Source of the DNA: a virus
IMG/VR virus record: IMGVR_UViG_3300032163_000001
Coordinates: 110,249 to 174,248 of that record
Direction: 5' to 3' (one strand)
DNA length: 64,000 nt
Position 1 is the stretch's first letter. Each line of letters opens with the position of its first letter. The position numbers and the translations under genes were made by a program. This document shows, one piece after another, positions 1,348-63,180 of this stretch. The notes beneath the pieces were generated by a model. The model ran no database searches. It saw nothing but the letters and a program-made list of their open reading frames with translations, and was not told the DNA's origin.

Positions 1348-1448
1348 ACTTTCACAACTGGGACTTCAATGTCCTAATCTGAAAAGGAGGGAGTTAACTT
1401 CTAGTTGACTCCTTCCTTTACTTTAAGAAAGAGGAGGTAAAAAGAGTT

Positions 1449-2225
1449 ATGAAAAGAATATCTTTATTAATTATGGTTTTGATCATGATGTTCACTACCA
1501 CAGCATTTGCTCAGGTGGGTATCACTAACAGTCAGAACAAACCAGACTATTCCCCAGTGGCCCAAGCTGGAGCTCAATCCACATCTGGAGCTACAGCTGT
1601 TGCCAATCCATCAAGCGTATCTGGAGCTACAGCTAGTTCCAATCCAACAACCATATCTGGAGTTACTAATACTAATACTCCAGTAACTACAGGCATCGGT
1701 GTTGTGGGCGTTGACGTTAAAGTTCTATCTGAGAACCCGGTACAAAATATCCAAAATACTGCTTTCTTTCCTTTACCCATCTCTTTAATTCAAGGTGGTA
1801 GAGTTGGTGATATAACTGATCAGTTACCCAACTTCGCTGGTATGAAGAAGTTAAGAGTTCCTTATATCAGAGAGAATGGTGAAAGAAGAGAAGTTGATTT
1901 AGGGGAAATAGTAAATCCGGATAAGATCGAGACTTTCTCAGGCTGGTTCCTTGACAGGGTATGTCTAGAGGATCTCTGGAAAGACGTTGTAAAGTCCTTT
2001 AGAAAAATGCAGGACAAGGGATGGAATATTGCCAAGATGAGATACCGGGTTTACTATAAAGACAAAGCCAAAGGCGTTGGTGCTAGCCTTGGTGGTAGTG
2101 GTGGTATGTCAACCACATCTAATAGTGGCACTGGTATTCAAGCCTCTGGTGGTGCAACGATTGGATATGCTTCTAGTTGGGCAGATCCAATGTATGTTAT
2201 TACAATTTGTGAAGTCGTACAGTAG
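1449..2225 (+). CDS. Secreted protein with signal peptide and Ser/Thr/Ala repeats
   Basis: SD GAGGAGG. N-terminus MKRISLLIMVLIMMFTTTAFAQ. Repeated SGATA(V/S)(A/S)NP units. Confidence 0.6.
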   Translation: MKRISLLIMVLIMMFTTTAFAQVGITNSQNKPDYSPVAQAGAQSTSGATAVANPSSVSGATASSNPTTISGVTNTNTPVTTGIGVVGVDVKVLSENPVQNIQNTAFFPLPISLIQGGRVGDITDQLPNFAGMKKLRVPYIRENGERREVDLGEIVNPDKIETFSGWFLDRVCLEDLWKDVVKSFRKMQDKGWNIAKMRYRVYYKDKAKGVGASLGGSGGMSTTSNSGTGIQASGGATIGYASSWADPMYVITICEVVQ

Positions 2226-2303
2226 AATCCATTTAGTGGTTAGGGGAGGAGGATTTTAGTTTAATCCTCCTCTTTATTTTCTCTATTTAAGGAGGATGAA
2301 AAT

Positions 2304-2606
2304 ATGAAAAAGGTTGCCTTAGTGCTGTTGATTTTGACGCTGGCAGTAATTACTGGTTATGGTTCAGCGTATGCATTTGATTCACCCAGACATTTCTGCC
2401 ATCATCCTTTTAACATCAAAACATTCACAGGGTTACCTTCTGTATTCATATTACCTACCAACGATCTTTCTGGACTCTACTGGCAATATTTACTCACTAT
2501 AAAACCTGGTCGAAATGGATGGGTTTATAGTGACTTCGCATTGAAGAGTAAGTATCTAGGAAAACCGATCGTAGGTAAAGTTACAAAAGGTAAACCTCTA
2601 AATTAA
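2304..2606 (+). CDS. Small secreted protein (signal peptide)
   Basis: SD GGAGGATG. N-terminus MKKVALVLLILTLAVITGYGSAYA. Confidence 0.5.
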   Translation: MKKVALVLLILTLAVITGYGSAYAFDSPRHFCHHPFNIKTFTGLPSVFILPTNDLSGLYWQYLLTIKPGRNGWVYSDFALKSKYLGKPIVGKVTKGKPLN

Positions 2607-2633
2607 CAACTAATTTGGTTTAGAGGAGGAGTC

Positions 2634-3392
2634 ATGAAAATAAAAATCCTGCTGTTAATTGTAAGTATTCTATTTATGTCAAACGCAGGTTTCGCTTCTG
2701 ATTTAAAAGATTTCCCTAGAGATAACTTCTTTCTCGAAATCTATTTACCTCTAGGTGACGTAGGAAAACCATCACCAAATGCTATAGGTAAGGGGTTGAA
2801 TGGGACTCAGTTAAATAAACAGGATTGTATTGGTCCTGGATTGCTACCTGCTGGAGTTGAGGAATGGATAGTTATAGGAAAGAATAAGAAGGGGAAAGTA
2901 ATTGTACAAGCTTCCCCACCTAAACCTGTTCCTTCACCTCCACTAGTAGTACAAGTGCCACTTCCACCAGTGCCAAAAGTAATACCCACGTTACCTCCCC
3001 CGTTACCTCCCCCGCCACTTCCGCCACTTCTACCACCAAAAGTAATTCCACTAGTAGTTTTACCACCTATCTATTTTGATATAAATAAGAGTATGATAGA
3101 TGCTAGAACTGCAGGCACGCTGGATAAAATTGGTAAGATTTTGAAAGAGAACCCCAAGATGAAAATCGAAATCATGGGACATACTGACGACAGTGGTGTA
3201 GAGGTAGGAAATAAGAAGTTATCCGAGAAGAGAGCACTTTCCGCTCAGAAATATCTCTCCGACAAATTCGGAATTTCAGAAGATCGTTTGATTGCTAAAG
3301 GGTATGGATCAACGAAACCTATCGCTGATAATAAGACTATAGAAGGCCGTAGACAGAATAGGAGAGTTGAATTTCATATTATTGAGAAATAA
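2634..3392 (+). CDS. OmpA/MotB C-terminal-domain (peptidoglycan-binding) protein with signal peptide and proline-rich linker
   Basis: Signal peptide MKIKILLLIVSILFMSNAGFAS. Pro-rich PPLPPPPLPPLLPP linker. C-terminus MGHTDDSGVEVGNKKLSEKRALSAQKYL...GYGSTKPIADNKTIEGRRQNRRVEF matches the OmpA_C consensus (GHTD..G....N..LS..RA..V...L......G.G...P......T..G...NRRVE). Confidence 0.8.
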   Translation: MKIKILLLIVSILFMSNAGFASDLKDFPRDNFFLEIYLPLGDVGKPSPNAIGKGLNGTQLNKQDCIGPGLLPAGVEEWIVIGKNKKGKVIVQASPPKPVPSPPLVVQVPLPPVPKVIPTLPPPLPPPPLPPLLPPKVIPLVVLPPIYFDINKSMIDARTAGTLDKIGKILKENPKMKIEIMGHTDDSGVEVGNKKLSEKRALSAQKYLSDKFGISEDRLIAKGYGSTKPIADNKTIEGRRQNRRVEFHIIEK

Positions 3393-3428: not shown

Positions 3429-3456
3429 CATATATTAATTTAATGAAAAGGAGGTG
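3424..3456 (+). promoter_or_regulatory. Conserved bipartite motif copy 1: TACATATATTAATT-N5-GAAAAGGAGGTGAAA (putative phage promoter/leader element)
   Basis: One of five near-identical copies (3424, 6208, 30686, 36068, 63148), all on + strand upstream of + strand genes. Confidence 0.5.
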
Positions 3457-6207: not shown

Positions 6208-6242
6208 GATTTACATATATTAATTTTTGAAAGGAGGAACTA
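6208..6242 (+). promoter_or_regulatory. Conserved bipartite motif copy 2: TACATATATTAATT-N5-GAAAGGAGGAAC
   Basis: See copy 1. Here the GGAGG also serves as SD for ATG 6243. Confidence 0.5.
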
Positions 6243-9482: not shown

Positions 9483-10577
9483 CTAACACGGTAATTTATT
9501 TATAATCTCTTTATTTATTTTTTGTAATAAGAGTTTCCATTCATCTCTGTTAGAGTTAGTTTTAGCATGAGTAGAATGATTTAACCAGATTAGATTTTCT
9601 CTTGAGTCGTTTTGTTTGTTATAGTCTATGTGATGCAGGTGAGCTTCATCTGTTAACAACTCTTCTGTAATTGGATCTATGTTGTTTTGTTCTTGTTTGA
9701 TTTGACTTCGAAAATCTATGTTGAAGAATTTTTCTGTGTAGGGTGCAAATCTTTGTTCTCTATCTTCTATCCATCGATAGTTGTTTGGTCCAGTTCTTTT
9801 TTCTATAACTTCTGGAATTAGTAGTGGACTTTTATACCCATATTTCTCAAACACCTTTTCTTCAGACTTCTTTCTAACTTCAGGGTTAGACATAGCATGT
9901 TTAACTCCATATCTTTCTAAGTTAGTATTTTCTCTTCTCTCTTTAAACTCTTCAACTTGAGAAGGATTTTCTACTCCATATTTTTGAATACAAGTTTCTT
10001 TCTTCTTTTCTTTAATTTTAGATTCTCTTCCCGGATGTCCTTCTTCATAGTTCTTTTCCCAAGTATTTAAACACCTTTCCATAATATCAGGATTTGACAT
10101 CGCGTGTTTAACTCCATATCTTTCTAGATTAGTATTTTCTCTTTTCTTCTTAAATTCTTCAACCTGAGATGCATTTTTAACTCCATATTTCTCTAAAAAT
10201 GTTTGTTTACTCTTTTCTCTGATTTCTCTCCTCTTCATCGCATTATCCACACCATAGCGTTCTAAGTTCGTTCTTTTTGATTTTAAAGGATTGTTATAGG
10301 CGGGAGTTCCATATTTCTTTATTTTTGCTTCTTTCACTAGATTTTTATGAAATTCACTTTTCTGTACACATTTCCCATGGTATTTAAAGTATCCTCTTTC
10401 CATACAATCGAAGTTAGTAGCCTTTTTGCAAACTTCACAAAAACCTTCGTCATCTTTTTTTAAATATAAATCATAATATTCTTGAACTTTACTATGAAGT
10501 TTTTGAATATGCGTAGATAAGCTTCTTAACAATTCAAAATTCTTGTTACAAATTCTACATACTTTTTCACTAGACAT
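9483..10577 (-). CDS. HNH homing endonuclease with tandem YGV-repeat DNA-binding modules
   Basis: C-terminal HHIDYNKQNDSRENLIWLNHSTH is an HNH motif. Three or more repeats of ExYGVxNxSQVEEFK..RENTNLERYGVKHAMSNP. N-terminal Cys cluster. Confidence 0.65.
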   Translation of the reverse strand: MSSEKVCRICNKNFELLRSLSTHIQKLHSKVQEYYDLYLKKDDEGFCEVCKKATNFDCMERGYFKYHGKCVQKSEFHKNLVKEAKIKKYGTPAYNNPLKSKRTNLERYGVDNAMKRREIREKSKQTFLEKYGVKNASQVEEFKKKRENTNLERYGVKHAMSNPDIMERCLNTWEKNYEEGHPGRESKIKEKKKETCIQKYGVENPSQVEEFKERRENTNLERYGVKHAMSNPEVRKKSEEKVFEKYGYKSPLLIPEVIEKRTGPNNYRWIEDREQRFAPYTEKFFNIDFRSQIKQEQNNIDPITEELLTDEAHLHHIDYNKQNDSRENLIWLNHSTHAKTNSNRDEWKLLLQKINKEIINKLPC

Positions 10578-28460: not shown

Positions 28461-30566
28461 CTACCATTCTACTAAAACTAAACCCGAACCTCCTGATGCG
28501 CCTTCACCGTGGGTATGCCCAGCCAGACATCCGCCACCCCCTCCACCACCTGCTCCACTATTTGCGGCAGCTGACTCACCATCGTCTCCATTACCATTAG
28601 AAGACGATGCACCATCACCGCCGGCTCCTCCATTTCCATATAAACCTCCACCACCACCACCACCACCAAAACCATAACTCAGAAAGTTTAATCCACCTCC
28701 ACCGCCAAATCCTATAGTAGATAATGGAGAAGGAAACGGACCTCCGTCACCAGCGGATCCTGTAGGATACCCACTATTACTACCCGCACCTCCACCACTT
28801 CCACCAATTAAAAACACAGTAAAAGCACCAGACTGTCCAGATCCATTGGGATATTGTCCTCCAGAACCAGCTAAATATTGGGGCCCGCCGCCGTTTCCAC
28901 CGTTACCGCTTTCATAAAGTGAACCTTCATGACCTGCTTTTCCTCCATCTGCTATAACAAAGCTGCCAAAAGATGACAGTGATCCAATAGTTTCTTCTGC
29001 ACCTCCAGTTCCAACGATTACAGAAATTTCACTACCTGGAGTTACGTGGACAGGATACCTATACACTACAGCTCCTGATCCTCCGGCACCGCCACCGGAA
29101 TTACCTGGCGGAGCGCCAGCCCCACCGGGTCCACCTCCACCTCCACCACCTAAACAAGTTACATTAACTAGTGATATATTATTTGGAACAGTAAAAGTGC
29201 CACTTACTGTAAATAATTGAGATTGGTTAGACACAGCGTTTCCTCCTGATCTCGAAATTTCATACCAAACACCATTGTAATTTACTAAAGTCAAAGTACT
29301 TCCTGTAACTGCCGTAAAATTTACACCTCCAGAAAGAACTATCAAACTTGGATTATGAACTAAAGTAGTATTACTATTTCCAAAATACAGTGTAATCATT
29401 ATTCCTGAATTGTTTCCTGAAGGAGCACCTGTAAAATTAATTATATTAGTAGACACTGTATTTTGTACTGCAAGAACCCCACAAACGTGACTACCTGATG
29501 ATAAAATGTTCGGAGTAGAAGAATTATCATTAACAATTTTAACAAGGTTTGTATATCCCATAGATAAGTCAAGAGTAGATATCGCTATTCGTAAACTATC
29601 AGAATTATTAATACTCCTAGTAGATGTATAAGAAGGTAGTAAATTTCCTCTAGCTGATTTGCCTATAAAATTTCTCAAATAATCTGTCTCTTGATCTAAT
29701 GCACTAGCAGCAGCAGTCAGACTTATTCCTTGAGTTGCTATTGTAGTAATACTAGTATAATTAGGATCTATATCAGATGCACCAACTGATCCTACATAAG
29801 TTCTTAGTTTAGTTAACTGATCTTCTAAATCTAGACTAAGTATTCCAATACCATCATGATTTAGAACTGGGTGAGAATACATATCATTTGCTAACTGTGT
29901 TAAATCTAATGAACTTCCTCCACCACCTCCACCAAAAGGTTGCCAACCACTAGAAGATCCATAATATACATCATCACTACTTCTAACAATAATAACTCTT
30001 GCGTAATCTCTAAGGAGATCAAATGTTGGTATGTTATCTTCTAAACCAAGGTATAGTTTTGAATAAATTCTTTTAACTGTAGGATTCTCAGGGTCTAAGT
30101 CACTTATAGAAACAGTTGAAAATTGTTCTCCTGGCAAGTTTACAAGAATAGCTTTTAGAAAAACATAAAGACCAGTTGCAAAAGGATTTCTTTGAGAAGG
30201 TTTTAGTATTCTAATTGAAGGCCTTGGTGCTGGTCTAGCCTTTTCATAAACATAATGCATTACTATATAATAGTATCCTGGTTCGTTCCAATATCCCCCA
30301 ACTCCAGGAGAAATATAGTAATCTCCATCTGCCATATCTACTGTACACTCTGATATGGTAATAAAAACGTCATCTTTGAAGAAAGAACCTGATGAGATAA
30401 GTATTTCACTTGTGGAGTCAGGAACTAAACTTACGTCAATTTTATCAGCAGAAAAGATACAATTCTCATAGTTGGAAACTAACCTTGTTAGTCTATTAAC
30501 TACGTTACTGTGGTAACTATCAAAGGGAGAAACTGTACAAGTATGAACAGGATATGGATTTCCCAT
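28461..30566 (-). CDS. Glycine-rich tail fibre protein
   Basis: 701 aa. C-terminal half dominated by GGGGGG/GNGG tracts typical of phage Gly-rich fibre proteins. Confidence 0.5.
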   Translation of the reverse strand: MGNPYPVHTCTVSPFDSYHSNVVNRLTRLVSNYENCIFSADKIDVSLVPDSTSEILISSGSFFKDDVFITISECTVDMADGDYYISPGVGGYWNEPGYYYIVMHYVYEKARPAPRPSIRILKPSQRNPFATGLYVFLKAILVNLPGEQFSTVSISDLDPENPTVKRIYSKLYLGLEDNIPTFDLLRDYARVIIVRSSDDVYYGSSSGWQPFGGGGGGSSLDLTQLANDMYSHPVLNHDGIGILSLDLEDQLTKLRTYVGSVGASDIDPNYTSITTIATQGISLTAAASALDQETDYLRNFIGKSARGNLLPSYTSTRSINNSDSLRIAISTLDLSMGYTNLVKIVNDNSSTPNILSSGSHVCGVLAVQNTVSTNIINFTGAPSGNNSGIMITLYFGNSNTTLVHNPSLIVLSGGVNFTAVTGSTLTLVNYNGVWYEISRSGGNAVSNQSQLFTVSGTFTVPNNISLVNVTCLGGGGGGGPGGAGAPPGNSGGGAGGSGAVVYRYPVHVTPGSEISVIVGTGGAEETIGSLSSFGSFVIADGGKAGHEGSLYESGNGGNGGGPQYLAGSGGQYPNGSGQSGAFTVFLIGGSGGGAGSNSGYPTGSAGDGGPFPSPLSTIGFGGGGGLNFLSYGFGGGGGGGGLYGNGGAGGDGASSSNGNGDDGESAAANSGAGGGGGGGCLAGHTHGEGASGGSGLVLVEW

Positions 30567-30685: not shown

Positions 30686-30718
30686 TATATATATTAATTC
30701 TTGGAAAGGAGGAACACC
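30686..30718 (+). promoter_or_regulatory. Conserved bipartite motif copy 3: TATATATATTAATT-N5-GAAAGGAGGAACACC, placed 55 nt before the MVP-like gene's own SD
   Basis: See copy 1. No ORF follows the internal GGAGG here, so GGAGG is part of the element rather than an SD. Confidence 0.5.
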
Positions 30719-30773: not shown

Positions 30774-33245
30774 ATGGCGGCTCCACAAGAAAGTAATGTA
30801 GTATTATCACCAAATGAGTTTGTATTTGTTCAAGACTCTACGAAAGGAGAGATTAAGTGTTTAGCAGGACCTTACAAAACAGGTCTTACTGGTGAAGATT
30901 TTCCAGTCATATTTAATAAAGATTCAAAAAAGTTTGAAAAAGTAGATCTTTACAAAGCTACTCAACTTTTTGCTATTGCACCTGAAGGTTGGTATATTAT
31001 TTTGAAAAATCCAGCTGGACAATACCCTGATCCAGGAAAAGCAAATATCCCTATTCCACTTAATATGGGCAGAAAAATTAACATTCCAGGTCCAGTTAGT
31101 TTTGCTTTATGGCCTGGTCAAATGAAAAAAGTAGTCCAGGGCCATCACCTTCGATCAAATCAATATTTATTAGTTCGAGTTTATGATGAAGGTGAAGCTA
31201 TAAAGAACTTAGATAAAGCAATTATCAAACGAGTAGAAACTGAACCACCAGAGAAAAAAGAAGCTCCTCAAGAATCTAAAGTAGAGAAAAAAGAAGAAAT
31301 CAAAAAATCTGAGTTTGCTGTATCAGATTTAACAATGGGAAAACTTCTAATTATTAAAGGAACAGATGTAGCATTCTATATTCCTCCAACTGGTATTGAA
31401 GTAGTAGCTCCAGAAGATAATAAATATGTTAGAGAAGCAGTAACTTTAGAAACTTTAGAATACTGTATTCTTCTAAATGAAAATGGCAATAAAAGATATA
31501 TCAAAGGTCCAGCTGTAGTTTTTCCAGAACCAACTGAAACTTTCATTCAATCTAATGGAAAGAAAGTATTTAAAGCATATGAACTCAACGAAATATCTGG
31601 TCTTTATCTTAAAGTCATCTCAGCATATAGTGAAGATGATAAAGAATATGAAGTAGGACAAGAATTATTTATCACTGGTGCAGAACAAGCGATTTATTAT
31701 CCAAGACCAGAACATGCGATTATAAAATATGGAGATCAAGAAATCCATCATGGAATTGCTATCCCAGCTGGTGAAGGTAGGTACGTCCTCGATAGACTTA
31801 GTGGGTCAATTTTATTAAAGAAAGGTCCATGTGTTTTTTTACCAGATCCGAGACACCAAGTAATTGTTAGAAGAATTTTAGATTTAAGTACAGTTGATCT
31901 ATGGTATCCGGGGAACCTAGAAGCTAGAGAGTATAACTCTTTTTTATTGAACATGCTGCAAGAAACTAGGGGTTTTGCGCCAAAAGAGGGAGTTAATTAT
32001 ATAGACCAACAAATGTATTCTTCTAGAGTAGCACCTCAAGCAAAAGGTTTTGTGGCTGACGAAGTCAAACGAAAAAATGTATACACACCCCCTCGAACAA
32101 TCACTTTAGATACTAAATATGAAGGAGTTCCAATCATCAAAGTTTGGACCGGTTATGCTGTATTAATAACTAGTAAAACTGGAAAAAGAGAAATGGCTAT
32201 TGGACCAACTCCGGTTTTACTACAATATGATGAAACTTTAGAATTTATGGAACTTTCTACAGGAACTCCAAAAAGTGATACTAACTTACATAAGACTGTT
32301 TACCTTAGAGTGTTAAACAATAAAGTTTCAGACATAGTCAAAGCTGAAACTAAAGATCTTTGTCCCATTAGTATACAAGTTTCATATCGAGTGAATTTTG
32401 AAGGAGAAACTAGTAATTGGTTTAACGTTGAAAACTATGTAAAGTTCTTAACAGATCATTTAAGGTCTTTAATTAGAAGTAATATTAAACAATATGGAAT
32501 TGAAGAGTTCTACTCAAATTCAATTTCTATTGTTAGAGATTGTGTTTTGGGAAAGTCAGATGGAGAAAAGAGACCAGGAAGAGCATTTGATGAAAATGGG
32601 ATGAGAGTTTATGAGTGTGAAGTTTTAAACGTTGAAATTAGTAATGATACTGTTAAAAGGATGTTAACTGATGCTCAAACTGTATCTGTACAAAACACAA
32701 TTAACTTAGCAAAGAGCAGAAGTAATCTATCATTTACGACAGAAAATGAAGATATCAAAAGAAAAATTGAAGGAGAAGTACATAAAAGTTTTATTAGTTC
32801 CTCAGATATAAAGATTGATTCAACAAAGAGGATACTAATAGAAAATTTAGAAAAGATTAAATCATCATATAAAGAAACGATTGAAAATATTAACTACTCT
32901 TTAGAAAAAGTCAAATTAACGGAAGGTGTTACAACTCAAGAGGTTTCCAATCTTAAAATTCGATCCGACTATGATTATAAAGTCAATCAACAAGACCAAA
33001 TCTTAGGACTAGAAAAACTTAAAGCAGAAAACGAAGCTGAAATTAAGAAAGTTGAAGCCGTCTCAAAAGATTTAATTGCAGCTCTGCAGTCTTTTGGTGA
33101 TCAGATTGCTCTAGAGAAAGTTACTCAATCACTAGCTCCTCTGGCTTTACTTGGTGGAGGTTCAATAGCTGACGTAGTTAATAAACTACTAAAAGGAACA
33201 GTTCTTGAAGGGATTTTGGCTAAAAAAGTTAAAGAAGTAACGTAG
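30774..33245 (+). CDS. Major vault protein (MVP) homologue: N-terminal MVP-repeat domains, SPFH/band-7 shoulder, C-terminal cap-helix-like coiled coil
   Basis: Repeats such as LYLKVISAYSEDDKEYEVGQELFITGAEQAIYYPRPEHAII resemble human MVP [41 protein letters not shown]. Shoulder MAIGPTPVLLQYDETLEFMELSTGTPK ... ISIQVSYRVNFE ... FNVENYVKFLTDHLRSLIRSNIKQYGIEEFYSNSISIVRDCVLG resembles MVP [27 protein letters not shown] ... LQLQLAYNWHFE ... [44 protein letters not shown]. C-terminal ALQSFGDQIALEKVTQSLAPLALLGGGS resembles MVP [28 protein letters not shown]. Length 823 aa versus 893 for human MVP. Confidence 0.7.
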   Translation: MAAPQESNVVLSPNEFVFVQDSTKGEIKCLAGPYKTGLTGEDFPVIFNKDSKKFEKVDLYKATQLFAIAPEGWYIILKNPAGQYPDPGKANIPIPLNMGRKINIPGPVSFALWPGQMKKVVQGHHLRSNQYLLVRVYDEGEAIKNLDKAIIKRVETEPPEKKEAPQESKVEKKEEIKKSEFAVSDLTMGKLLIIKGTDVAFYIPPTGIEVVAPEDNKYVREAVTLETLEYCILLNENGNKRYIKGPAVVFPEPTETFIQSNGKKVFKAYELNEISGLYLKVISAYSEDDKEYEVGQELFITGAEQAIYYPRPEHAIIKYGDQEIHHGIAIPAGEGRYVLDRLSGSILLKKGPCVFLPDPRHQVIVRRILDLSTVDLWYPGNLEAREYNSFLLNMLQETRGFAPKEGVNYIDQQMYSSRVAPQAKGFVADEVKRKNVYTPPRTITLDTKYEGVPIIKVWTGYAVLITSKTGKREMAIGPTPVLLQYDETLEFMELSTGTPKSDTNLHKTVYLRVLNNKVSDIVKAETKDLCPISIQVSYRVNFEGETSNWFNVENYVKFLTDHLRSLIRSNIKQYGIEEFYSNSISIVRDCVLGKSDGEKRPGRAFDENGMRVYECEVLNVEISNDTVKRMLTDAQTVSVQNTINLAKSRSNLSFTTENEDIKRKIEGEVHKSFISSSDIKIDSTKRILIENLEKIKSSYKETIENINYSLEKVKLTEGVTTQEVSNLKIRSDYDYKVNQQDQILGLEKLKAENEAEIKKVEAVSKDLIAALQSFGDQIALEKVTQSLAPLALLGGGSIADVVNKLLKGTVLEGILAKKVKEVT

Positions 33246-33253
33246 TAAAAGAA

Positions 33254-33289
33254 TAGGGAGTAAAGGATTAATGTTTCTTTACTCCCTAT
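33254..33289 (+). promoter_or_regulatory. Perfect 11-bp hairpin (AGGGAGTAAAG-loop-CTTTACTCCCT) between the MVP-like and kinase-like genes, sequestering the upstream ATG 33271
   Basis: Read directly. No T-run, so more likely an attenuator/processing structure than a terminator. Confidence 0.35.
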
Positions 33290-33306
33290 TAGAGGGAGGG
33301 GGGCGT

Positions 33307-34074
33307 ATGAATTTAAAAACTTTTTTAGATAGATTCTTTAATAGGTTTAGATTATTTCAGTCTGAAAAACTTTCTCTAAAAACTCTTGTATCAGAATACA
33401 AAAAAGTCGTACATTACATTTTTCTGATACAAGAGAAAGATAAAAAAAGGATTTCAGAACATTTACATGAATGTTTATCAAATTTATCTACTCTCAGATT
33501 TTATACAGATATACTGGAGGGAAACAAATTAAGCAAAGAAACAGATTTTGCAGTAATAGTTGAACTAATAGATTCAACTATCAAACGTATAAACACTCTC
33601 ATTAGTATTACCAGACCAATTGTTATAGATCAGCTCGATATTGGTAGATCAATACATTTTCTTTGTAGGCATTTCGAGAGAAAAGGAAATGTTCAAATTA
33701 AGATGATATCACAAAATAATAAAGAAATTTTCATTACTGACAAAGTTCTAAAGATATCTATATATAGAGTTGTACAAACGTGTATATGGAAATCTATCAA
33801 AGTTTTTGGAGCTACTGTTATTTATGTTAGTTTAGAAAATTCACTCAAAATAACTGTAGAAGATAATGGAAAAGAAGAACCAGTAAATAAAGAATTTTAC
33901 AAAACTTTAAATTTATGGATAAACGAGTTAGTAAAACTTACACGAGGGTCAATCAAAGAAGAACGAACCAAACAAGGTACAAATAAAACAATTATCATAT
34001 GGAATATGGAGAAAATAAAAAGTGAGATAAACCAGTTAATAAAAAAGGAGGAAAACTATAATGAAAACAAATAA
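33307..34074 (+). CDS. Soluble HisKA_3-type histidine-kinase core (DesK/LiaS-like H-box + GHKL ATPase), no sensor/TM domain (start set at ATG 33307 after GGGAGGGGGG)
   Basis: H-box KKRISEHLHECLSNLSTLRF resembles DesK RERIARDLHDTLGQKLSLI. G1 box ITVEDNGKEE (D-x-G). 256 aa. Confidence 0.5.
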   Translation: MNLKTFLDRFFNRFRLFQSEKLSLKTLVSEYKKVVHYIFLIQEKDKKRISEHLHECLSNLSTLRFYTDILEGNKLSKETDFAVIVELIDSTIKRINTLISITRPIVIDQLDIGRSIHFLCRHFERKGNVQIKMISQNNKEIFITDKVLKISIYRVVQTCIWKSIKVFGATVIYVSLENSLKITVEDNGKEEPVNKEFYKTLNLWINELVKLTRGSIKEERTKQGTNKTIIIWNMEKIKSEINQLIKKEENYNENK

Positions 34075-34345
34075 GAAAAAAATGATGGCGATGTTGACAG
34101 AATTTAGTGTATCAACACCTCAGGCAAAGAATGTATTCCTAGTTGGAGATTTTAATCAATGGAATCCAAGTACACATCCATTGAAACAGAAGAAGGGAGG
34201 AATATGGAAGATTACTCTTGCTTTAGATCCAGGGAAACATGAGTATCGATTTCTCATAGATGGACAATGGATAAACGATGTACATTGTTCTTCTTTTGTT
34301 GAGAATCCATTTGGTACAAAGAACTGTTTAAGAATTGTGAGATAG
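34061..34345 (+). CDS. Stand-alone CBM48 / AMPK-beta glycogen-binding-domain protein
   Basis: NVFLVGDFNQWNPSTHPL...GGIWKITLALDPGKHEYRFLIDGQWINDV matches the CBM48 signature (V.L.GSFN.W......L......W.....L..G.H.YKF.VDG.W..D). SD AAGGAGGA. Confidence 0.65.
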   Translation: MKTNKKKMMAMLTEFSVSTPQAKNVFLVGDFNQWNPSTHPLKQKKGGIWKITLALDPGKHEYRFLIDGQWINDVHCSSFVENPFGTKNCLRIVR

Positions 34346-34389
34346 TTCTTCAATCGAAGATAAGGAAAGGAAGGTGAAACCAAAAAATT

Positions 34390-34417
34390 AAGGGGTGACT
34401 TTCAATAGTCACCCCTT
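34390..34417. terminator. Bidirectional terminator (AAGGGGTGACT-ttcaat-AGTCACCCCTT) closing the MVP cassette and the convergent gene
   Basis: Perfect 11-bp stem, A-run upstream and T-rich downstream. Confidence 0.6.
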
Positions 34418-34481
34418 AGTAACATAAATGTAACTGTAATTAGTAATTAATTTGTATTTTGTATTTGTTCATCTTATTTAG

Positions 34482-35186
34482 TTAAATTAGTTTTCTATGT
34501 TCTAAATAAGTTTTTACATCTTCAACAGTAGGATCAATTTTGTTTATTTCTATTATTATCCAACCATCTCTCTCAATCTTATGGTTCCTATGAATATCAG
34601 GCATACCATGGTTATGCCAAAACGTTTTTGGGAATTCTAAATCTATTTTCTTAAGAGGAATGCAAATATCTGTAACAATTCGATAGTCTAGAGACCCGGA
34701 TAGAGAAACTTTATCAATCATATAATTGTTAATAACAGTATCAGTTGGAAATAGATTTCTTAGAAATTCTAGAATTTGAAGCTTTCTTGGATGAATCTTT
34801 GGAGCATGTGGAAAGAGATTATTAGTTTTTTGAATTTTAACCTGTTTTACAACTACATTAGCTTTCTTTTCGAGCTTGGTAAGTTCAGGTTTTTTCTCTA
34901 CAACTTCTCTTTCTATATCTAAAACGTCAGTTTGTGTTAAAGTTAGTTTAGTTAAATCAATATCTTCTACAATTGGATTTTCCTCTGTTTTAGAAAATAA
35001 GTTACCCTTCAAATATCTTTGTCTAGCTTTGTATTCTACACTAGTTATCGGACAATCTGGAAATCTCTCTCTATAAATTGATAAAGAAATTCCATGTTTA
35101 TTTTTCAAGTGCGATGGAGTTATAATAGGGAATTCTTCACCACATATCTGACAAACAACTTTTCCCTTATCTGTCACTTTTTCCAT
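34482..35186 (-). CDS. Ros/MucR-type zinc-finger protein with C-terminal nuclease-like domain (homing-endonuclease-like)
   Basis: VCQICGEEFPIITPSHLKNKHGISLSIYRERF resembles the MucR C.ECGK.FK.LKRHL..HH..SPE.YREKW motif. C-terminal DGWIIIEINKIDPTVEDVKTYLEHRKLI resembles DUF559/Vsr-like HE tails. Confidence 0.45.
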   Translation of the reverse strand: MEKVTDKGKVVCQICGEEFPIITPSHLKNKHGISLSIYRERFPDCPITSVEYKARQRYLKGNLFSKTEENPIVEDIDLTKLTLTQTDVLDIEREVVEKKPELTKLEKKANVVVKQVKIQKTNNLFPHAPKIHPRKLQILEFLRNLFPTDTVINNYMIDKVSLSGSLDYRIVTDICIPLKKIDLEFPKTFWHNHGMPDIHRNHKIERDGWIIIEINKIDPTVEDVKTYLEHRKLI

Positions 35187-35242: not shown

Positions 35243-35623
35243 ATGTATCATTATTTAATTACAGTAGGTATTCAAGAAATAGATTCGTCTCTTGCAGGAA
35301 AAATGTATTTAGATAACTTTTTATCATATGATGACAAAGCAAGAAAAAATGTGGAGTCTTGTCAAAAGTTGTCACAAGATCATCTGTTTAAAACCACTCC
35401 AGAACAGTCTGCTGAAATATTTGACTGTAGTAGATTATTAAATGACTTACAAATGATACTAATAAGATGTAAAGTTCAAAACACAATTTTACTACACTAT
35501 ATATCTGAAGATCAATTAGATAAATGCTTTTTCGAAGAATGGGTAATGGTGAACTCTTTAGAAGAACTTAAAAAAGCTCAAGTGGGGAAAGGAGAGGTTC
35601 TCAAAGATGGACATAATTTATAG
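35243..35623 (+). CDS. Hypothetical protein
   Basis: SD AAAGGAGAAGAAATG. 126 aa. Confidence 0.4.
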   Translation: MYHYLITVGIQEIDSSLAGKMYLDNFLSYDDKARKNVESCQKLSQDHLFKTTPEQSAEIFDCSRLLNDLQMILIRCKVQNTILLHYISEDQLDKCFFEEWVMVNSLEELKKAQVGKGEVLKDGHNL

Positions 35624-36017
35624 TTGGCAAGAGTTCGAAAACGACTGTTACGATATCCTAAGACTTTTGTCTAAACTAAAAGAAGTCAAGAACATTTTTG
35701 GAATTCCCAGAGGAGGATTGATACTAGCTGTTAGACTTTCACATTTACTATCAAAACCAGATCACAAAGTACCGTTAATTTTGAGAGATGAAGAAATAGA
35801 ACCAGAAACTCTTATAGTCGACGACATTTCAGACTCAGGAAAAACTTTACTAGAATACTGCTCTTACTACCAAACCAGTTTATCTATTACATTATGGATA
35901 TGTAACGAAACAAAATTTACACCATCGTTCTTTTTAAATACAAAAAACAAGGGTGATTGGATAGTATTTCCATGGGAACAAAACTACCGGGGAACTGCTG
36001 TTGATCCTGAATTGTAA
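35607..36017 (+). CDS. gpt: Xanthine-guanine phosphoribosyltransferase-like (Gpt, type I PRTase)
   Basis: FGIPRGGLILA and PRPP-binding LIVDDISDSGKTL. C-terminal DWIVFPWEQ resembles E. coli Gpt TWIEQPWD. 136 aa. Confidence 0.65.
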   Translation: MDIIYSWQEFENDCYDILRLLSKLKEVKNIFGIPRGGLILAVRLSHLLSKPDHKVPLILRDEEIEPETLIVDDISDSGKTLLEYCSYYQTSLSITLWICNETKFTPSFFLNTKNKGDWIVFPWEQNYRGTAVDPEL

Positions 36018-36067: not shown

Positions 36068-36100
36068 CATATATTAATTATTTGAAAGGAGGTGAAAGTA
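36068..36100 (+). promoter_or_regulatory. Conserved bipartite motif copy 4: TACATATATTAATT-N6-GAAAGGAGGTGAAAGT
   Basis: See copy 1. Confidence 0.5.
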
Positions 36101-37823: not shown

Positions 37824-38360
37824 ATGCATTTAGTTGGGATCATCGGTAAAAAAGGAAGTGGGAAATCCGAGTGTTCAAAAATTTTGTGTGAAAAATATAG
37901 TTTTCAGAGGACTTCGTTCGCTGATAAACTTAAGCAAACTGTATCAGATCTTTTCGATATTCCCTTAAACTTTCTTTATGATCCCAAACTTAAAGAAACG
38001 TATGATAATAGATGGGGAAAAACTTACAGAGAAATTATGCAACTTTTTGGTACCGAAGTTGGTAGATGTATTTATAATGACATATGGGTGTATCACGTTG
38101 AGAAACACTTATTACAAAATCCTGATCTTAGTTTTGTTATAGATGACGTTAGATTTAAAAATGAAGCTGTTTTAATCAAAAAACTCAATGGTTTATTAAT
38201 AAAAGTAGTGCGACCATCTAATGACATTCAAAAAGATTTTCATAAATCAGAAACAGAACAAGATGAAATTGAAGTAGATATAACTATCTTAAATAACTCA
38301 TCTAAAGAAGATCTATATAATACAGTCAATCAAGTTTACCTTGAATTTTGTAACAAATAA
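37824..38360 (+). CDS. Deoxynucleoside monophosphate kinase (T4 gp1-like)
   Basis: P-loop GIIGKKGSGKS. FADKLK, REIMQLFGTEVG and LIKVVRP align with T4 gene 1 (VIHVVRP). Confidence 0.65.
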   Translation: MHLVGIIGKKGSGKSECSKILCEKYSFQRTSFADKLKQTVSDLFDIPLNFLYDPKLKETYDNRWGKTYREIMQLFGTEVGRCIYNDIWVYHVEKHLLQNPDLSFVIDDVRFKNEAVLIKKLNGLLIKVVRPSNDIQKDFHKSETEQDEIEVDITILNNSSKEDLYNTVNQVYLEFCNK

Positions 38361-38428
38361 AATTATATCAGATATCTATAGCACTAAAACTATTGTAAAG
38401 ATAATACGTTGAAAGGGAGGTGAAAACA

Positions 38429-39352
38429 TTGAGCTTAAATGAATTAATAGGTAGAAAATCAGTTGGTCGTCCTTGTGTCCCTACTTTAAATTTCATAGTA
38501 GGAAATAGACAATGTAACATGGAGTGTAAATATTGTATTTCTAAAATGACGAAGGCTGAGTTATCTAAACGAGGAGAGGTTTCTCCTTTATGGTATAGAA
38601 ATAGACGTTTAGCTTTTAGCGTAGCAAAGAAGTTTAGTACTGATACAGTGTTAATCACAGGAAAAGGAGAACCAACTATCTGGAAAACAGAATTACTAGA
38701 TACTATAGCAAGAGCTAGTGACGAAGGATTTATTACAGAACTTCAAACAAATGGAGTTTTATTAGATGAATCTTATTGTATTCATCTTGCTGGAGCAGGT
38801 CTTAATACTATAGCTATTAGTAGAGTCACAGTTGATACAGCTACGAATAATTGGATATGTGATCCTATACATTTTAGTACTCCAAATTTACACCAGTTAA
38901 TTCCAATGATCCAAAGACTTGAAATAAAGATGAACATTCGAATTACTTTTGTAGCTATGAAAGGTTACAATGACTCAGTTGAAAAGATAGAGAAAACATG
39001 TCTTTGGGCTTTATCGAATGGAGTTAAACAAGTTACTATTAGAAGAATGGGGATGCCAAATCTTAGTTCAATTGAAAGTTTAGATAGTGCATTCGAGATC
39101 GAAAAATTTGTAACAGATAACCTTGTTCCAGATGAAGAATGGAAAAAGATCATAGATTTCTTTATGAAAGAATACACTATTTTAAGAGTTTTTGACTGGG
39201 GCTCAATCAGCTGGTCTATTAATGGAGTCCAGTGTTTAATAGCTGATTGTTTAACAGTGCCAGGATTAGATGGCACAATCAGGTATCTTATATATTATCC
39301 TGATGGTCATTTAAGATATAGTTGGGAACACGATTCTACAATAATTTTTTGA
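38429..39352 (+). CDS. Radical SAM enzyme (CxxxCxxC; viperin/MoaA-like core), function unknown; start uncertain (TTG 38429 or GTG 38420)
   Basis: RQCNMECKYC, GKGEP glycine motif, LQTNGVLLDE and LNTIAISRVTVD resemble viperin IVSNGSLIRE / LDILAISCDSFD and MoaA. Confidence 0.6.
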   Translation: MSLNELIGRKSVGRPCVPTLNFIVGNRQCNMECKYCISKMTKAELSKRGEVSPLWYRNRRLAFSVAKKFSTDTVLITGKGEPTIWKTELLDTIARASDEGFITELQTNGVLLDESYCIHLAGAGLNTIAISRVTVDTATNNWICDPIHFSTPNLHQLIPMIQRLEIKMNIRITFVAMKGYNDSVEKIEKTCLWALSNGVKQVTIRRMGMPNLSSIESLDSAFEIEKFVTDNLVPDEEWKKIIDFFMKEYTILRVFDWGSISWSINGVQCLIADCLTVPGLDGTIRYLIYYPDGHLRYSWEHDSTIIF

Positions 39353-39386: not shown

Positions 39387-39460
39387 TCAGGAGTCGTCTA
39401 ATTTAGGCAGGACATTTGACTTTGAATCAAAAAATAAAGGTTCGATTCCTTTCTCCTGAA
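39387..39460 (+). tRNA. tRNA-Gln (anticodon UUG)
   Basis: Acceptor TCAGGAG/CTCCTGA perfect 7 bp. D-arm GTCT..GGAC. Anticodon arm TTTGA-CTTTGAA-TCAAA (U33, anticodon TTG, A37). T-arm AAAGG-TTCGATT-CCTTT. No encoded CCA. Confidence 0.75.
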
Positions 39461-40602: not shown

Positions 40603-40890
40603 ATGGCTAAATTTATAGACTTTGTTGATAAGAAATTTATATGTGATAACTGCAAAAAAGTTATTCAAGGAAAAGAAATTGTCTTAGAATTAGCTCCAAC
40701 TAATTTTGATATATTAACTCCTCTTCACCCACTCATTTTTATTGATAAAGATGGGATTATCAAAGGAGGTTCTAAATTTGCAGACGGGTCTATTGGGGAC
40801 CAAATATTGAACTGTCCAAAATGTAATTACCCTCATTTATATGGATTTACACCATATGAAGAGAAAACATTAAAAGAGATGGGTCGGTAA
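40603..40890 (+). CDS. Small zinc-ribbon protein
   Basis: CDNCKK...CPKCNYPH. The stop codon overlaps the tRNA 5' end. Confidence 0.4.
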   Translation: MAKFIDFVDKKFICDNCKKVIQGKEIVLELAPTNFDILTPLHPLIFIDKDGIIKGGSKFADGSIGDQILNCPKCNYPHLYGFTPYEEKTLKEMGR

Positions 40891-40957
40891 GCTTAACTGG
40901 TTAAACTGCTGGACTCCAAATCCAGTCTTCGGGGTTCGAATCCTCGCCGGCCTGCCA
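40881..40957 (+). tRNA. tRNA-Trp (anticodon CCA)
   Basis: Anticodon arm CTGGA-CTCCAAA-TCCAG. T-arm CGGGG-TTCGAAT-CCTCG. Acceptor GGGTCGG/CCGGCCT (2 G-U pairs). Discriminator G and encoded CCA. D-arm is atypical. Confidence 0.65.
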
Positions 40958-40977: not shown

Positions 40978-42141
40978 ATGATAATTAATTCGATTCTTGA
41001 CAACGATTTATACAAGTTCACAATGCAACAAGCCGTTTGCCAACTGTATCCATCTGCTCACGCTAGATACGAATTTATTAACAGAGGCAAAACGATATTT
41101 CCACCTGACTTTGATCGTAAATTAGAAAGTGAAGTTAGATATTTTAGTGAATTTAAACTTGGTAAATATGAAAGGCATTTTCTTAATGATATCTATTTTC
41201 TTTATCCTCCCTATATAGACTTCCTTGATGGTTATAAATATAATCCAAGCGAAGTTCAAATAGAACAAAAGCATGGGGATTTAAAGTTAATAGTTGAAGG
41301 TCCTTGGTATAGGGCTATTTTATGGGAAGTACCTCTACTTGCTTTAATCAGTGAACTGTACTTTAAAGAAATAGGGGATATTGGTCCTTTCGCAGGTTAT
41401 GAATCAATAGCTAAAGGAAAAGCAGCTAGATTAAGAGATATTGGTGCTAAATTTGCTGACTTCGGAACTAGGAGAAGGTATTCCTATGAAGTTCAAAACC
41501 ATGTCATTGGGGCTTTAGAAAGTGGAGGAGGTATCTTCTTTAATGGAACTAGTAACGTTTATTTTGCTATGCAACATCAAGTTAGGGCAATAGGCACTCA
41601 GGCGCATGAGTGGATGATGTTTCATGCGTCACAATATGGTTTTCATCTAGCTAACCAGATTTCGATGGAAAAATGGGTGGACACTTATCAAGGAGACTTA
41701 GGTATTGCTTTAGCTGATACTTATACTTCAGATGCTTTTTTCAAGTCGTTTAATACAAAGTTCTCTAAACTTTATGATGGCGTGAGACAAGACTCTGGAG
41801 ATCCAATAGAATTTGCAGATAAAGCAATTAAACATTATGAAAAATTAAGAATAGACCCAACAACTAAAACCATTGTTTTTAGTGATGGGTTAGATGTAAA
41901 CAAAGTAGAAGAAATTGAGAAACACTGTAGAGGAAAGATTAGGACTTCCTACGGGATAGGGACTAACCTAACGAATGACGTAGGAGTCAAACCTTTAAAT
42001 ATTGTTATAAAAATGACTGCGTGTAAATCTACTCTTAGTGATCCTTGGACTAATACATGCAAATTGTCTGACGTTCCCACTAAATATACTGGAGATCCTG
42101 AAATGATAAAACTATGTAAACAAGTTTTGGAGATACAATAG
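40978..42141 (+). CDS. pncB: Nicotinate phosphoribosyltransferase (PncB)
   Basis: DNDLYKFTMQQAV, GPWYRAILWEVPLLALISE, FGTRRRYSYEVQ, IGTQAHEWMMFH, VRQDSGDP and KPLNIVIKM align motif-for-motif with E. coli PncB. SD AGAGGAGG. Confidence 0.8.
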   Translation: MIINSILDNDLYKFTMQQAVCQLYPSAHARYEFINRGKTIFPPDFDRKLESEVRYFSEFKLGKYERHFLNDIYFLYPPYIDFLDGYKYNPSEVQIEQKHGDLKLIVEGPWYRAILWEVPLLALISELYFKEIGDIGPFAGYESIAKGKAARLRDIGAKFADFGTRRRYSYEVQNHVIGALESGGGIFFNGTSNVYFAMQHQVRAIGTQAHEWMMFHASQYGFHLANQISMEKWVDTYQGDLGIALADTYTSDAFFKSFNTKFSKLYDGVRQDSGDPIEFADKAIKHYEKLRIDPTTKTIVFSDGLDVNKVEEIEKHCRGKIRTSYGIGTNLTNDVGVKPLNIVIKMTACKSTLSDPWTNTCKLSDVPTKYTGDPEMIKLCKQVLEIQ

Positions 42142-63147: not shown

Positions 63148-63180
63148 CATATATATTAATTACTGAGGAGGCAAACAATC
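63148..63180 (+). promoter_or_regulatory. Conserved bipartite motif copy 5: ACATATATATTAATT-N4-GAGGAGGCAAAC (divergent region)
   Basis: See copy 1. Confidence 0.45.

Follow-up and report, generated by a model that had tools for sequence, protein, structure and literature searches.

The 64,000-nucleotide stretch of viral DNA analysed here (the window) carries a gene that, judged from its sequence, is a genuine full-length member of the prokaryotic branch within the major vault protein (MVP) family. Its product runs collinear with eukaryotic MVP: about seven beta-repeat modules come first, then the SPFH-like shoulder, next the long cap helix and at the end a C-terminal tail that is conserved. 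The explanation that we favour, and to which as a whole we give a probability of about 0.6, is that this is a long-kept phage MVP, encoded by an early non-structural gene, which would form an intracellular vault-like cage outside the virion. The 823-aa open reading frame of the sequence-only reading was confirmed and is uninterrupted, and its parts lie as follows.

30774..33245, + strand: coding sequence of the MVP homologue (uninterrupted open reading frame; 823 aa, 92.6 kDa, pI 6.2)
30774..32315, + strand: N-terminal rod of about seven MVP-type beta-repeat modules (residues 1-514; AF2, Foldseek, hhalign)
31236..31337, + strand: disordered Lys/Glu/Pro-rich insert in the third repeat module (residues 155-188; pLDDT, family alignment)
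32316..32642, + strand: shoulder domain with an SPFH/band-7-like fold (residues 515-623; PF11978; pLDDT 70-90)
32646..33056, + strand: cap-helix-like long alpha-helix (residues 625-761, about 137 residues; AF2, profile alignment)
33057..33242, + strand: conserved C-terminal tail (residues 762-823), a possible counterpart of the cap-ring

The proposal that a phage carries an MVP homologue over its full length held up, with the MVP_shoulder match, a collinear hhalign alignment, rod fold matches that are all MVP and a phage setting of the gene pointing the same way. The Pfam check suggested for it found MVP_shoulder (PF11978) far over its cut-off (95.4 bits vs 25, E 3.1e-27, residues 515-623, profile positions 2-117 of 118) and Vault_3 barely over (28.9 vs 28.8 bits), with Band_7 below threshold (14.9 vs 23.6 bits); MVP_shoulder and Vault_3 were found in 54 of 54 aligned relatives. 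MVP was the sole match of the protein in sequence searches of the PDB (phmmer, hmmsearch). Alignment to vertebrate MVP with hhalign gave a probability of 99.6 and an E of 1.3e-23 over 659 collinear columns at ~22% identity, and the N-terminal half alone, using a deeper alignment in global mode, gave an E of 3e-24. A transmembrane segment is absent (maximum Kyte-Doolittle hydropathy over 19 residues of 1.20), and going by its residues the homologue is a soluble protein.

The N-terminal rod was modelled by AF2 over residues 1-520 (pLDDT 89.3, pTM 0.78), and this model is confident because a 145-sequence alignment replaced the 54 close homologues. The full-length model was built on those 54 and is poor (pLDDT 55.8), and its top 12 fold matches are all MVP. 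Foldseek of the rod model against the PDB returned 16 matches, every one an MVP (E 1e-16 to 4e-12; next E 0.2), with TM scores of ~0.53 for the rat vault and 0.58 for the crystal structure of R1-R7; the confident N-terminal model therefore resembles vault structures alone in the PDB, a check the sequence-only reading had named. No match for the rod was found in the BFVD viral structure library. Segments compared by hhalign with single repeats matched R1, R2, R6, R7-type, R8 and R9 in that order (S1 to R1, E 5.5e-7; S2 to R2, 5.8e-6; S4 to R6, 2e-5; S6 to R8, 6e-6; S8 to R9, 1.9e-11), giving these equivalents of the vertebrate modules:

Residues 8-48: R1
Residues 53-122: R2
Residues 130-210: one generic repeat
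Residues 219-257: R6
Residues 265-316: R7
Residues 324-450: R8, with a helical insert
Residues 454-508: R9

The MVP-type repeat array is present in kind without reaching the vertebrate number, as about seven modules were counted and not nine. For the repeats of about 55 aa that had been described, an MVP-type array was indeed found, but the strict form Y..V.D...G.....GP has no exact match and occurs relaxed at residues 230 and 461, while G.E.F..G....Y.P is present as a single occurrence at residue 295. Within the disordered insert, pLDDT is ~55 over residues 161-180 and falls below 50 at 165-167, and the insert positions vary across the family alignment.

The shoulder motifs quoted in the sequence-only reading are all literally there (GPTPVLL at residue 477, LSTGTPK at 494, IQVSYRVNFE at 534, FNVENYV at 550, YGIEEF at 574 and IVRDCVLG at 586). 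Flotillin, HflK/C, stomatin and prohibitin cages are secondary fold matches of the shoulder (E 1e-5 to 1e-3), and its kinship with the SPFH fold is real but secondary. The predicted cap-helix-like region also stands, in that a long helix does come after the shoulder: AF2 places helices at residues 625-713 and 721-761, the profile alignment to rat and human MVP reaches about residue 800 of MVP (792 in 4hl8 numbering), and the hydrophobic periodicity of ~3.8 residues is like that of an amphipathic helix. Tested alone against vertebrate MVP, the cap-helix region showed no significant similarity (E 0.0037). The terminal segment A.GP....L....L..SLG that had been assigned to the phage protein is in fact human MVP sequence, and the phage C-terminus is without it, reading ...VTQSLAPLALLGGGS... 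instead. Residues A770, F774, P789, A791, G794, G795 and S797 of the C-terminal tail are invariant in the 54-sequence family alignment; the tail has low pLDDT, and its likeness to the vertebrate cap-ring is not significant (E 0.39).

The window encodes a tail sheath, capsid protein, portal, prohead protease, DnaB-like helicase and DNA polymerase, and comes from a myovirus of divergent, jumbo type. The capsid protein of this phage is gp23-like and its tail contractile, but it is not closely related to T4. The capsid protein has at most 25% identity to that of any cultured phage, the best being phiR1-37, Xoo-sp13 and AR9/PBS1, with T4-type phages distant. The label "T4-like" can be kept loosely for the gp23-like capsid fold and contractile tail, but not in the sense of core-gene closeness to T4 (Straboviridae). 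The MVP gene is the first in a + strand block of non-structural genes that borders a large structural block and also encodes an NAPRTase (NAD salvage). Its upstream neighbour, 207 bp away, is a 701-aa glycine-rich tail-fibre-like gene (PF21722, PHROG tail fibre matches) from which it is divergent, and not convergent with a tail operon as had been stated. The same gene arrangement and junctions are found in a second, independent assembly, and L166, a relative of 90% identity found in a different sample, has the same upstream gene and intergenic region.

Three elements flank the gene.

30690..30712, + strand: promoter-like or leader motif TATATTAAT-N5-GAAAGGAGG, 84 nt 5' of the MVP start codon
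30760..30765, + strand: Shine-Dalgarno AGGAGG, a strong ribosome-binding site read from sequence, 8 nt 5' of the ATG
33252..33290, + strand: strong RNA hairpin with no U-run behind it, 6 nt 3' of the MVP stop codon

That the MVP gene has its own promoter-like motif was borne out and could be refined to a recurring, phage-specific pattern, which emerged from comparing the region with L166, where the copy upstream of MVP is kept. The pattern TATATTAAT-N4-10-AGGAGG has five copies in the window, all on the + strand, and none in 100 shuffles, and it is common to MVP and non-structural + strand genes including an RNase_T exonuclease. The motif is similar to the consensus of AR9 early promoters, AAATATATATTAT-(6N)-G (PMC5312081); AR9 is a distantly related phage, and the likeness is a lead and not a test. 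The transcript probably has its 5' end at the G near 30704. A scan for sigma-70 promoters returned no excess of sites over shuffled sequence and no site between the two genes. A search for a phage RNA polymerase came back negative among the scanned open reading frames of the 64-kb window (genome at least 185 kb). The hairpin downstream has a stem of 16 bp (-23.7 kcal/mol, z -4.2, with none of 200 shuffles as stable) and may act as a 3' stabiliser or attenuator.

Composition and divergence rule out recent horizontal transfer, and the suggestion of an acquired moron fails in the sense of a recent import. The gene has a GC of 0.331, a GC3 of 0.178 and a codon-usage correlation of 0.92 with the rest of the window, and its closest bacterial relatives are ~55% identical and lie in loci of 47-63% GC. 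Against L166 dN/dS is 0.27, and the gene is under purifying selection; the large-myovirus lineage has long retained it. Since bacterial metagenome-assembled genomes supply most of the close homologues, one could suspect misassembled host DNA or a bacterial contig misread as viral, but this is hardly credible given that the same junctions occur in two independent assemblies, L166 keeps the neighbour gene, codon usage is that of the phage, the phage's recurring motif lies upstream and hallmark phage genes flank MVP on either side.

Relatives occur in other phage genomes and metagenomes: we found them in 199 IMG/VR contigs, many of them 100-500 kb long, in three huge-phage genomes and in 251 bacterial species genomes, the viral carriers including a 735-kb huge-phage record. 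The statement that no phage MVP homologue had been reported was mistaken, as a 2023 preprint (bioRxiv 10.1101/2023.11.10.566534) has two, from Caudoviricetes sp. ctOa11 and ct2Ri15, and JGI labels close relatives "major vault protein"; because the preprint already describes phage MVPs, our discovery is incremental. Compared by description, those two proteins are likewise phage-borne, ~810 aa long, nearest to bacterial kin, encoded outside the structural cluster and known in silico only, but their carriers are gut phages whose predicted hosts are Bacillota, and our searches did not retrieve them; the window represents a different, larger myovirus lineage. In a rough neighbour-joining tree the window protein groups with P0002-P0005, and the P0003 and P0004 contigs look phage-like; the other huge-phage and IMG/VR MVPs (39-47% identity, other neighbourhoods) fall outside this clade. 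Huge phages LR756500, LR756501 and LR756503 have intact MVP open reading frames as in the window, with 42% identity over 94% of the query, and LR756501 MVP has MVP_shoulder, Vault_3 and Band_7 domains, the last of these over the Pfam cut-off, unlike in the window protein.

Bacterial MVP homologues have been described previously (Daly 2013, PMC3762200; bioRxiv 10.1101/872010). Here they were found in Myxococcota, Desulfobacterota, Chloroflexota, Bacteroidota, Cyanobacteria-related groups and others, with 50-57% identity to the window protein over the full length and the same length and inserts. Desulfonema-like or myxobacterial bacteria are candidate hosts in which an MVP-carrying phage might be cultivable. 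The window gene differs from them in having a GC of 0.33 and the phage promoter-like motif, while the nearest bacterial MVP loci have a GC of 0.47-0.63. We know of no experimental study, function or solved assembly for bacterial MVPs, nor of any phage MVP with demonstrated assembly.

Clustering of 80 viral and 80 bacterial loci gave no conserved neighbours other than shadow open reading frames on the MVP gene itself, with the exception of one viral sub-lineage that has an RNA-repair-like module beside MVP. In the 63-65% identical clade, MVP lies among small open reading frames, gyrase/topoisomerase and helicase genes, and in other phages it is beside RNA-repair genes, DNA polymerase, replication or small early-type genes, not structural ones. 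The MVP neighbours seen in the window are absent beside MVP elsewhere, except for the NAPRTase at locus L048. An RNA-binding protein that neighbours MVP in some phages (phrog_850; DUF2828 + DUF7788; for example L051, 15662-17215) has no homologue in the 64-kb window. A kinship of this protein with Ro60/TEP1 (TROVE) was considered and gained no support, as single-sequence and profile searches of the PDB and NCBIfam gave nothing, and no relevant link is apparent in the accessible part of the DUF2828 literature. A scan of the window at Rfam gathering thresholds (64 kb of at least 185 kb) returned two tRNAs and nothing else, with no vault RNA or Y RNA family among the matches; compared with the eukaryotic vault ribonucleoprotein, none of TEP1, PARP4 and vault RNA was detected in the window, in a comparison that covered the Rfam families and the phrog_850 protein. 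A defence or anti-defence system was also rejected, PADLOC having no match at E <= 0.01 for MVP or the seven downstream + strand genes up to the NAPRTase region.

In the explanation that we prefer, MVP would be transcribed as an early-class, non-structural gene. We consider it non-structural and possibly early because of the + strand-only motif, the AR9 likeness and the replication, RNA-repair and small early-type contexts elsewhere. Copies of the protein would then pack laterally through their repeats, shoulders and cap helices, as in eukaryotic MVP, and this packing would give a hollow cage, closed and vault-like, in the infected cell's cytoplasm. During infection such a cage would sequester some macromolecule or metabolite of host or phage, as a compartment or sink of the phage's own making, and would be no part of the virion. 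Eukaryotic MVP forms a closed 78-mer (D39) barrel with no other protein needed, and the phage MVP may be self-sufficient as well, because all its parts are conserved and it has no conserved neighbour (in 80 bacterial loci, and in the viral loci overall) and no transmembrane segment. Compared with rat and human MVP (PDB 4V60, 9BW5; 861-893 aa vs 823 aa in the phage), the order of parts is the same, but the R3-R5 region is a single module bearing the disordered insert, the cap-ring motif is missing and the NAD+ pocket residues are not conserved. With two repeats fewer per subunit the barrel would probably fall short of the eukaryotic length, and having seven repeats and not nine could alter or even abolish the closed-cage geometry.

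The position of the gene where a large structural block ends, with a tail-fibre-like gene 207 bp away and this adjacency kept in L166, could also fit a virion component assembled with that block, whether it decorates the head or tail or is internal or ejected. We regard this as unlikely, since MVP transcription is divergent from the structural block, the promoter-like motif is shared with non-structural + strand genes, relatives place MVP among gyrase/topoisomerase, helicase, RNA-repair or DNA polymerase genes, and the MVP fold has no virion role on record and no match in BFVD. The virion decoration raised in the sequence-only reading is likewise at odds with the lack of any conserved linkage between MVP and structural genes in related phages. 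Another role could come from the shoulder, as human MVP holds NAD+, ADP and ADP-ribose between neighbouring shoulder domains (PMC12280208; bioRxiv 10.64898/2026.05.01.722283); by such a pocket the phage protein might be a nucleotide sink, either an NAD+ buffer or a soak for defence-made ADP-ribose-type signals, and an NAPRTase is encoded both in the window's + strand block and at locus L048. This sponge role was demoted to a long shot because only one of ten human pocket residues is conserved (K506, which is K500 in the phmmer alignment), the remainder changing from human to phage as R504 to T, R507 to S, P508 to D, H509 to N, R511 to H, L517 to R, D521 to N, F522 to K and W545 to V. The strongly basic "keyhole loop" is gone, NAPRTase linkage is seen in 2 of ~85 loci, and PADLOC is without a match.

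The SPFH fold of the shoulder brings in a third role, that of a membrane-apposed scaffold. An open half-cage or ring would sit on the inner membrane and there organise or shield some membrane process, much like the cages of HflK/C, flotillin and stomatin, in place of a free closed vault. Band_7 is found in 26 of 54 relatives at E <= 0.01 and is over the Pfam cut-off in the huge-phage homologue, the fold is like that of the HflK/C, flotillin, stomatin and prohibitin cages, a flotillin-like gene adjoins MVP in some phages, and eukaryotic vaults associate with membranes in situ according to the accessible part of a 2026 paper (PMC13100048). With that said, the window protein has no transmembrane or strongly hydrophobic segment, its 514-residue N-terminal rod is MVP-specific with matches to vaults alone, and its own Band_7 score is under threshold, which leaves the scaffold a rather improbable reading compared with the cytoplasmic cage.

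A parallel to the proposed intracellular cage is jumbo-phage chimallin, a single phage protein that self-assembles inside the cell into a closed shell (PMC13282480). The likeness is one of proposed function only. Chimallin has an unrelated fold and surrounds the replicating DNA with a large lattice, while vaults are small cages that do not vary in size; the present analysis gave no evidence of a link between MVP and DNA. It is a tentative idea, and one that we hold with some doubt, that large phages make a vault-like organelle early in infection, the second after the chimallin nucleus, and in one sub-lineage perhaps with the adjacent RNA-binding and RNA-repair genes. If true, the combination of MVP with an RNA-binding/RNA-repair set would echo the eukaryotic vault ribonucleoprotein, in which MVP is joined by a TROVE protein and a small RNA. 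To our knowledge, the question of vault function has had no answer since 1986, and a phage organelle of this kind would offer a tractable phage and bacterial route to this 40-year-old question.

The window phage keeps an intact, selected, well-expressed-looking MVP gene, and MVP genes turned up again in at least 199 viral contigs. Any phage gene has to earn its keep in one infection cycle, and the role of MVP should therefore be one that helps within minutes to hours; sequestration, shielding and storage would fit a single cycle. On the practical side, an MVP with prokaryotic codons and a probably shorter barrel is a candidate engineerable nanocage.

The open reading frame for the phage major vault protein (MVP) is uninterrupted and has a ribosome-binding site ahead of it:

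30774..33245, + strand, MVP ORF, 823 codons, uninterrupted
8 nt 5′ of the MVP ATG, + strand, ribosome-binding site AGGAGG

In Pfam the product matched MVP_shoulder at residues 515-623 (95.4 bits, E 3.1e-27) and Vault_3, slightly over the cut-off, at residues 468-507. Searches of all PDB sequences returned MVP chains only, whether the query was the single sequence (E about 5e-10) or a family profile (E about 2e-23, residues 466 to 760 aligned), and a profile-profile comparison of the family alignment (n=54 sequences) with vertebrate MVPs (n=22) gave a probability of 99.6% and E 1.3e-23, in a collinear alignment of 659 columns that spans residues 6 to about 790. No transmembrane segment was found in the protein. 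Initial sequence evidence for the N-terminal half was weak, with residues 224-356 alone aligning with human 275-408 (E 3e-6), and it was a deeper alignment of 145 sequences that settled the question. AlphaFold2 used this alignment to model residues 1-520 with a mean pLDDT of 89.3 and pTM of 0.78, and Foldseek searching of the PDB with the model gave 16 hits, every one of them MVP (E 1e-16 to 4e-12; next E 0.2), with the rat vault matched at a TM of about 0.53 and the murine R1-R7 crystal structure at 0.58.

The rod was split into model-derived structural modules and each was compared with the nine human repeats (R1-R9). Matches ran in order as R1 (5.5e-7), R2 (5.8e-6), R6 (2e-5), an R3/R5/R7-type module, R8 (6e-6) and R9 (1.9e-11), with one generic module at the position of vertebrate R3-R5. 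The full-length model was poor overall (pLDDT 55.8), though confident in the SPFH-like shoulder; it placed helices at 625-713 and 721-761, and its top 12 fold matches were vault structures, with SPFH cages ranking next. Across the prokaryotic family the C-tail shows strong conservation, and a significant match between it and the vertebrate cap-ring was not found. Taken together, the module matches and the full-length and C-tail results describe an MVP with about seven repeat modules, interrupted by one insert, then a shoulder, cap helix and C-tail:

residues 155-188 of the protein, Lys/Glu-rich insert, disordered

Homology to MVP, correctly proposed in the sequence-only reading, is now well supported by the modelled structure. 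Every shoulder-region motif named in that reading is literally present. The N-terminal repeats are also there, in about seven modules vs nine in human MVP, and their proposed pattern occurs in relaxed forms (residues 230 and 461) but has 0 exact matches in its strict form. The terminal motif 'A.GP....L....L..SLG' is that of human MVP; the phage protein lacks it.

The gene resides in a phage, as the window also encodes a tail sheath, gp23-type major head protein, portal, prohead protease, DnaB-like helicase and family B DNA polymerase. Describing this phage as T4-like is appropriate only in the loosest sense, since its head protein is ≤25% identical to that of any cultured phage and best matches the jumbo phages phiR1-37, Xoo-sp13 and AR9/PBS1. 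Misassembly was ruled out: contigs 111 kb and 185 kb long carry the identical MVP, and a 90%-identical MVP from another sample (locus L166) keeps the divergent upstream gene (71% identical in amino acids), with hardly any change in the intergenic region. That upstream gene (28461-30566, −) encodes a 701-aa protein that matches tail-fibre PHROGs and whose long C-terminal region is rich in glycine (PF21722 Gly_rich_2). A homing endonuclease (9483-10577, −; PHROG 3339 and an HNH match) adjoins the tail sheath gene, and relatives of it occur on L029, L035 and L044, three unrelated viral contigs with an MVP gene. Another MVP-carrying contig, L061 (IMG/VR_UViG_3300037245_003526, 244 kb), has the window's DNA polymerase module in common (about 48% identity over 1082 aa) along with 5 neighbouring genes; its MVP lies ≤10 kb from the polymerase, in a position unlike that of the window phage, and is only 39% identical.

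MVP is a long-resident, selected phage gene. Its GC (0.331), GC3 (0.178) and codon-usage correlation with other genes (0.92) are phage-like, the nearest bacterial loci have a GC of 47-63% and MVPs only 50-57% identical, and dN/dS against a close relative is 0.27, so the earlier suggestion of an acquired moron does not hold for a recent event. A better candidate for recent acquisition is the group of first genes at 382-3392, which includes an OmpA-family peptidoglycan-binding protein (2634-3392) and has a clearly raised GC of 0.40-0.47 and a deviant codon usage (correlation of 0.37-0.63, vs 0.7-0.94 elsewhere). In a rough neighbour-joining tree the window MVP grouped with four metagenomic proteins (63-87% identity); the contigs of two of these, P0003 and P0004, were examined and look phage-like, with many small ORFs, gyrase/topoisomerase, PTPS and helicase. 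The tree placed this clade with bacterial sequences and away from most IMG/VR phage MVPs, a placement that is indicative only because the bacterial loci were picked by similarity to the query. L085, a 4.7-kb Desulfonema limicola MAG contig with coverage of about 224x, carries one of the closest MVPs with a bacterial label (55-57% identical); the contig may give a clue to the hosts of the clade or may itself be a mobile element.

A protein search with the phage MVP gave 6,807 relatives, and when representatives at 50% identity were searched exhaustively, 1,232 clusters matched, with 618 under E 1e-30. Relatives occur in 251 GTDB species genomes from many phyla and, among phage genomes and metagenomes, in 199 viral contigs of IMG/VR, many of them 100-500 kb long, and in three 'uncultured phage' records in GenBank (462 kb and 735 kb); in the 735-kb record the ORF is intact, 809 aa long and has the domains MVP_shoulder, Vault_3 and Band_7. 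Discussion of bacterial MVPs goes back to 2013 (PMC3762200; bioRxiv 10.1101/872010), predicted vault proteins are mentioned in a Borg paper, and a 2023 preprint put forward proteins of two gut phages as the 'first viral MVPs', modelled them with AlphaFold and raised the same question about function (bioRxiv 10.1101/2023.11.10.566534). Vaults are not mentioned in a 2021 comparative jumbo-phage survey or in a 2026 review, and the BFVD viral structure library held no match to the phage MVP. Phage MVPs are therefore little known yet not new, and the claim that none had been reported was overstated given the two in the 2023 preprint. What we describe is an MVP in a new phage lineage, of a class already reported yet functionally unexplained.

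MVP is divergent from the tail-fibre-like gene and is first in a + strand block. A generic sigma-70 promoter scan of the sequence gave no excess over chance, while the motif TATATTAAT-N4-10-AGGAGG occurs 5 times in the window, always intergenic and on the + strand, and in 0/100 shuffles. Its copies, with the extended form (a)CA-TATATTAAT-N4-10-(GAA)AGGAGG, are located at:

3431-3454, + strand
6216-6237, + strand
30690-30712, + strand
36070-36092, + strand
63152-63171, + strand

One copy lies 84 nt 5′ of the MVP start and is kept in the relative. The motif looks like a phage-specific promoter with a conserved leader, and it resembles AAATATATATTAT-(6N)-G, the early-promoter consensus that a virion RNA polymerase reads in AR9 and that has AT-rich counterparts in phiKZ and phiR1-37 (PMC5312081). 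The phages with these AR9/phiKZ-type early promoters are also the nearest cultured relatives of the window phage by capsid protein. Early expression of MVP is moderately supported, as no RNA polymerase genes were found within the 64-kb window. A hairpin separates MVP from the gene that follows:

33252-33290, 6 nt after the MVP stop, 16-bp RNA stem (-23.7 kcal/mol, z -4.2) that extends a perfect 14-bp inverted repeat

This hairpin could make the MVP mRNA more stable or curb read-through. The downstream ORF has its first ATG (33271) inside the hairpin and more likely begins at 33307, with an ATG that comes after GAGGGAGGGGGG.

Eukaryotic MVP alone forms vault particles. No conserved partner gene adjoins MVP in bacteria or in the phage loci taken together, and every architectural part of the protein is kept under selection in the phage. 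On these grounds, the most economical reading is that phage MVP would self-assemble into a soluble, vault-like cage within the infected cell, with a barrel that is probably shorter given the two missing repeats. It is also conceivable that MVP is a component of the virion, as it adjoins a tail-fibre-like gene, but this seems improbable: the gene's orientation speaks against it, as do the sharing of its promoter-like motif with other genes and the place that MVP takes in related phages. Three other roles were demoted: an NAD+/ADP-ribose sponge, because the human pocket residues are not conserved; a known defence protein, because there was no PADLOC match; and a membrane SPFH scaffold, because the protein has no membrane anchor and its rod is MVP-specific.

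A lead worth following comes from about 16-19 related IMG/VR contigs, in which MVP sits within an RNA-repair-like gene set (sub-lineage contigs L031, L039, L043, L045, L047, L049-L052, L056, L057, L059, L066, L068, L071, L076 and L080-L083). The set comprises a phrog_850 'RNA-binding protein' (Pfam DUF2828 and DUF7788) 1-3 kb upstream of MVP, an RNA ligase, an HD and AAA_33 kinase, metallophosphoesterases, a nucleotidyltransferase and a RaiA-like protein; a 530-aa flotillin/Band_7-like protein occurs in eight contigs that partly overlap with these. Such a module possibly parallels the MVP-TROVE-RNA vault particle. Single-sequence and profile searches of the PDB found no relationship of the phrog_850 protein to TROVE, and the 64-kb window has no phrog_850 homologue.

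In the window, the + strand block headed by MVP continues with a soluble histidine-kinase-like ORF, a CBM48 module, an SLT domain protein and the following auxiliary metabolism and tRNA genes:

35607-36017, + strand, phosphoribosyltransferase-like
37824-38360, + strand, dNMP kinase
38420-39352, + strand, radical SAM enzyme
39387-39460, + strand, tRNA-Gln
40881-40957, + strand, tRNA-Trp
40978-42141, + strand, NAPRTase

The kinase-like ORF (33271-34074, +) is similar to sensor histidine kinases in their cytoplasmic HisKA_3/HATPase core (NCBIfam MctS 8.8e-14, UhpB 4e-7); no sensor part, membrane part or Pfam match was found for it, and a soluble protein of this kind is unusual for a phage. Its end overlaps by 14 nt with a stand-alone 94-aa CBM48 / AMPK-beta glycogen-binding module (34061-34345, +). 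After these genes the block is interrupted by a ROS/MucR-like zinc-finger gene (34482-35186, −) and, 3′ of it, a GC-rich, terminator-like 12-bp hairpin (34389-34418). The NAPRTase, an enzyme of NAD salvage, is a full gene, and one other MVP locus, L048, has a NAPRTase within 10 kb.
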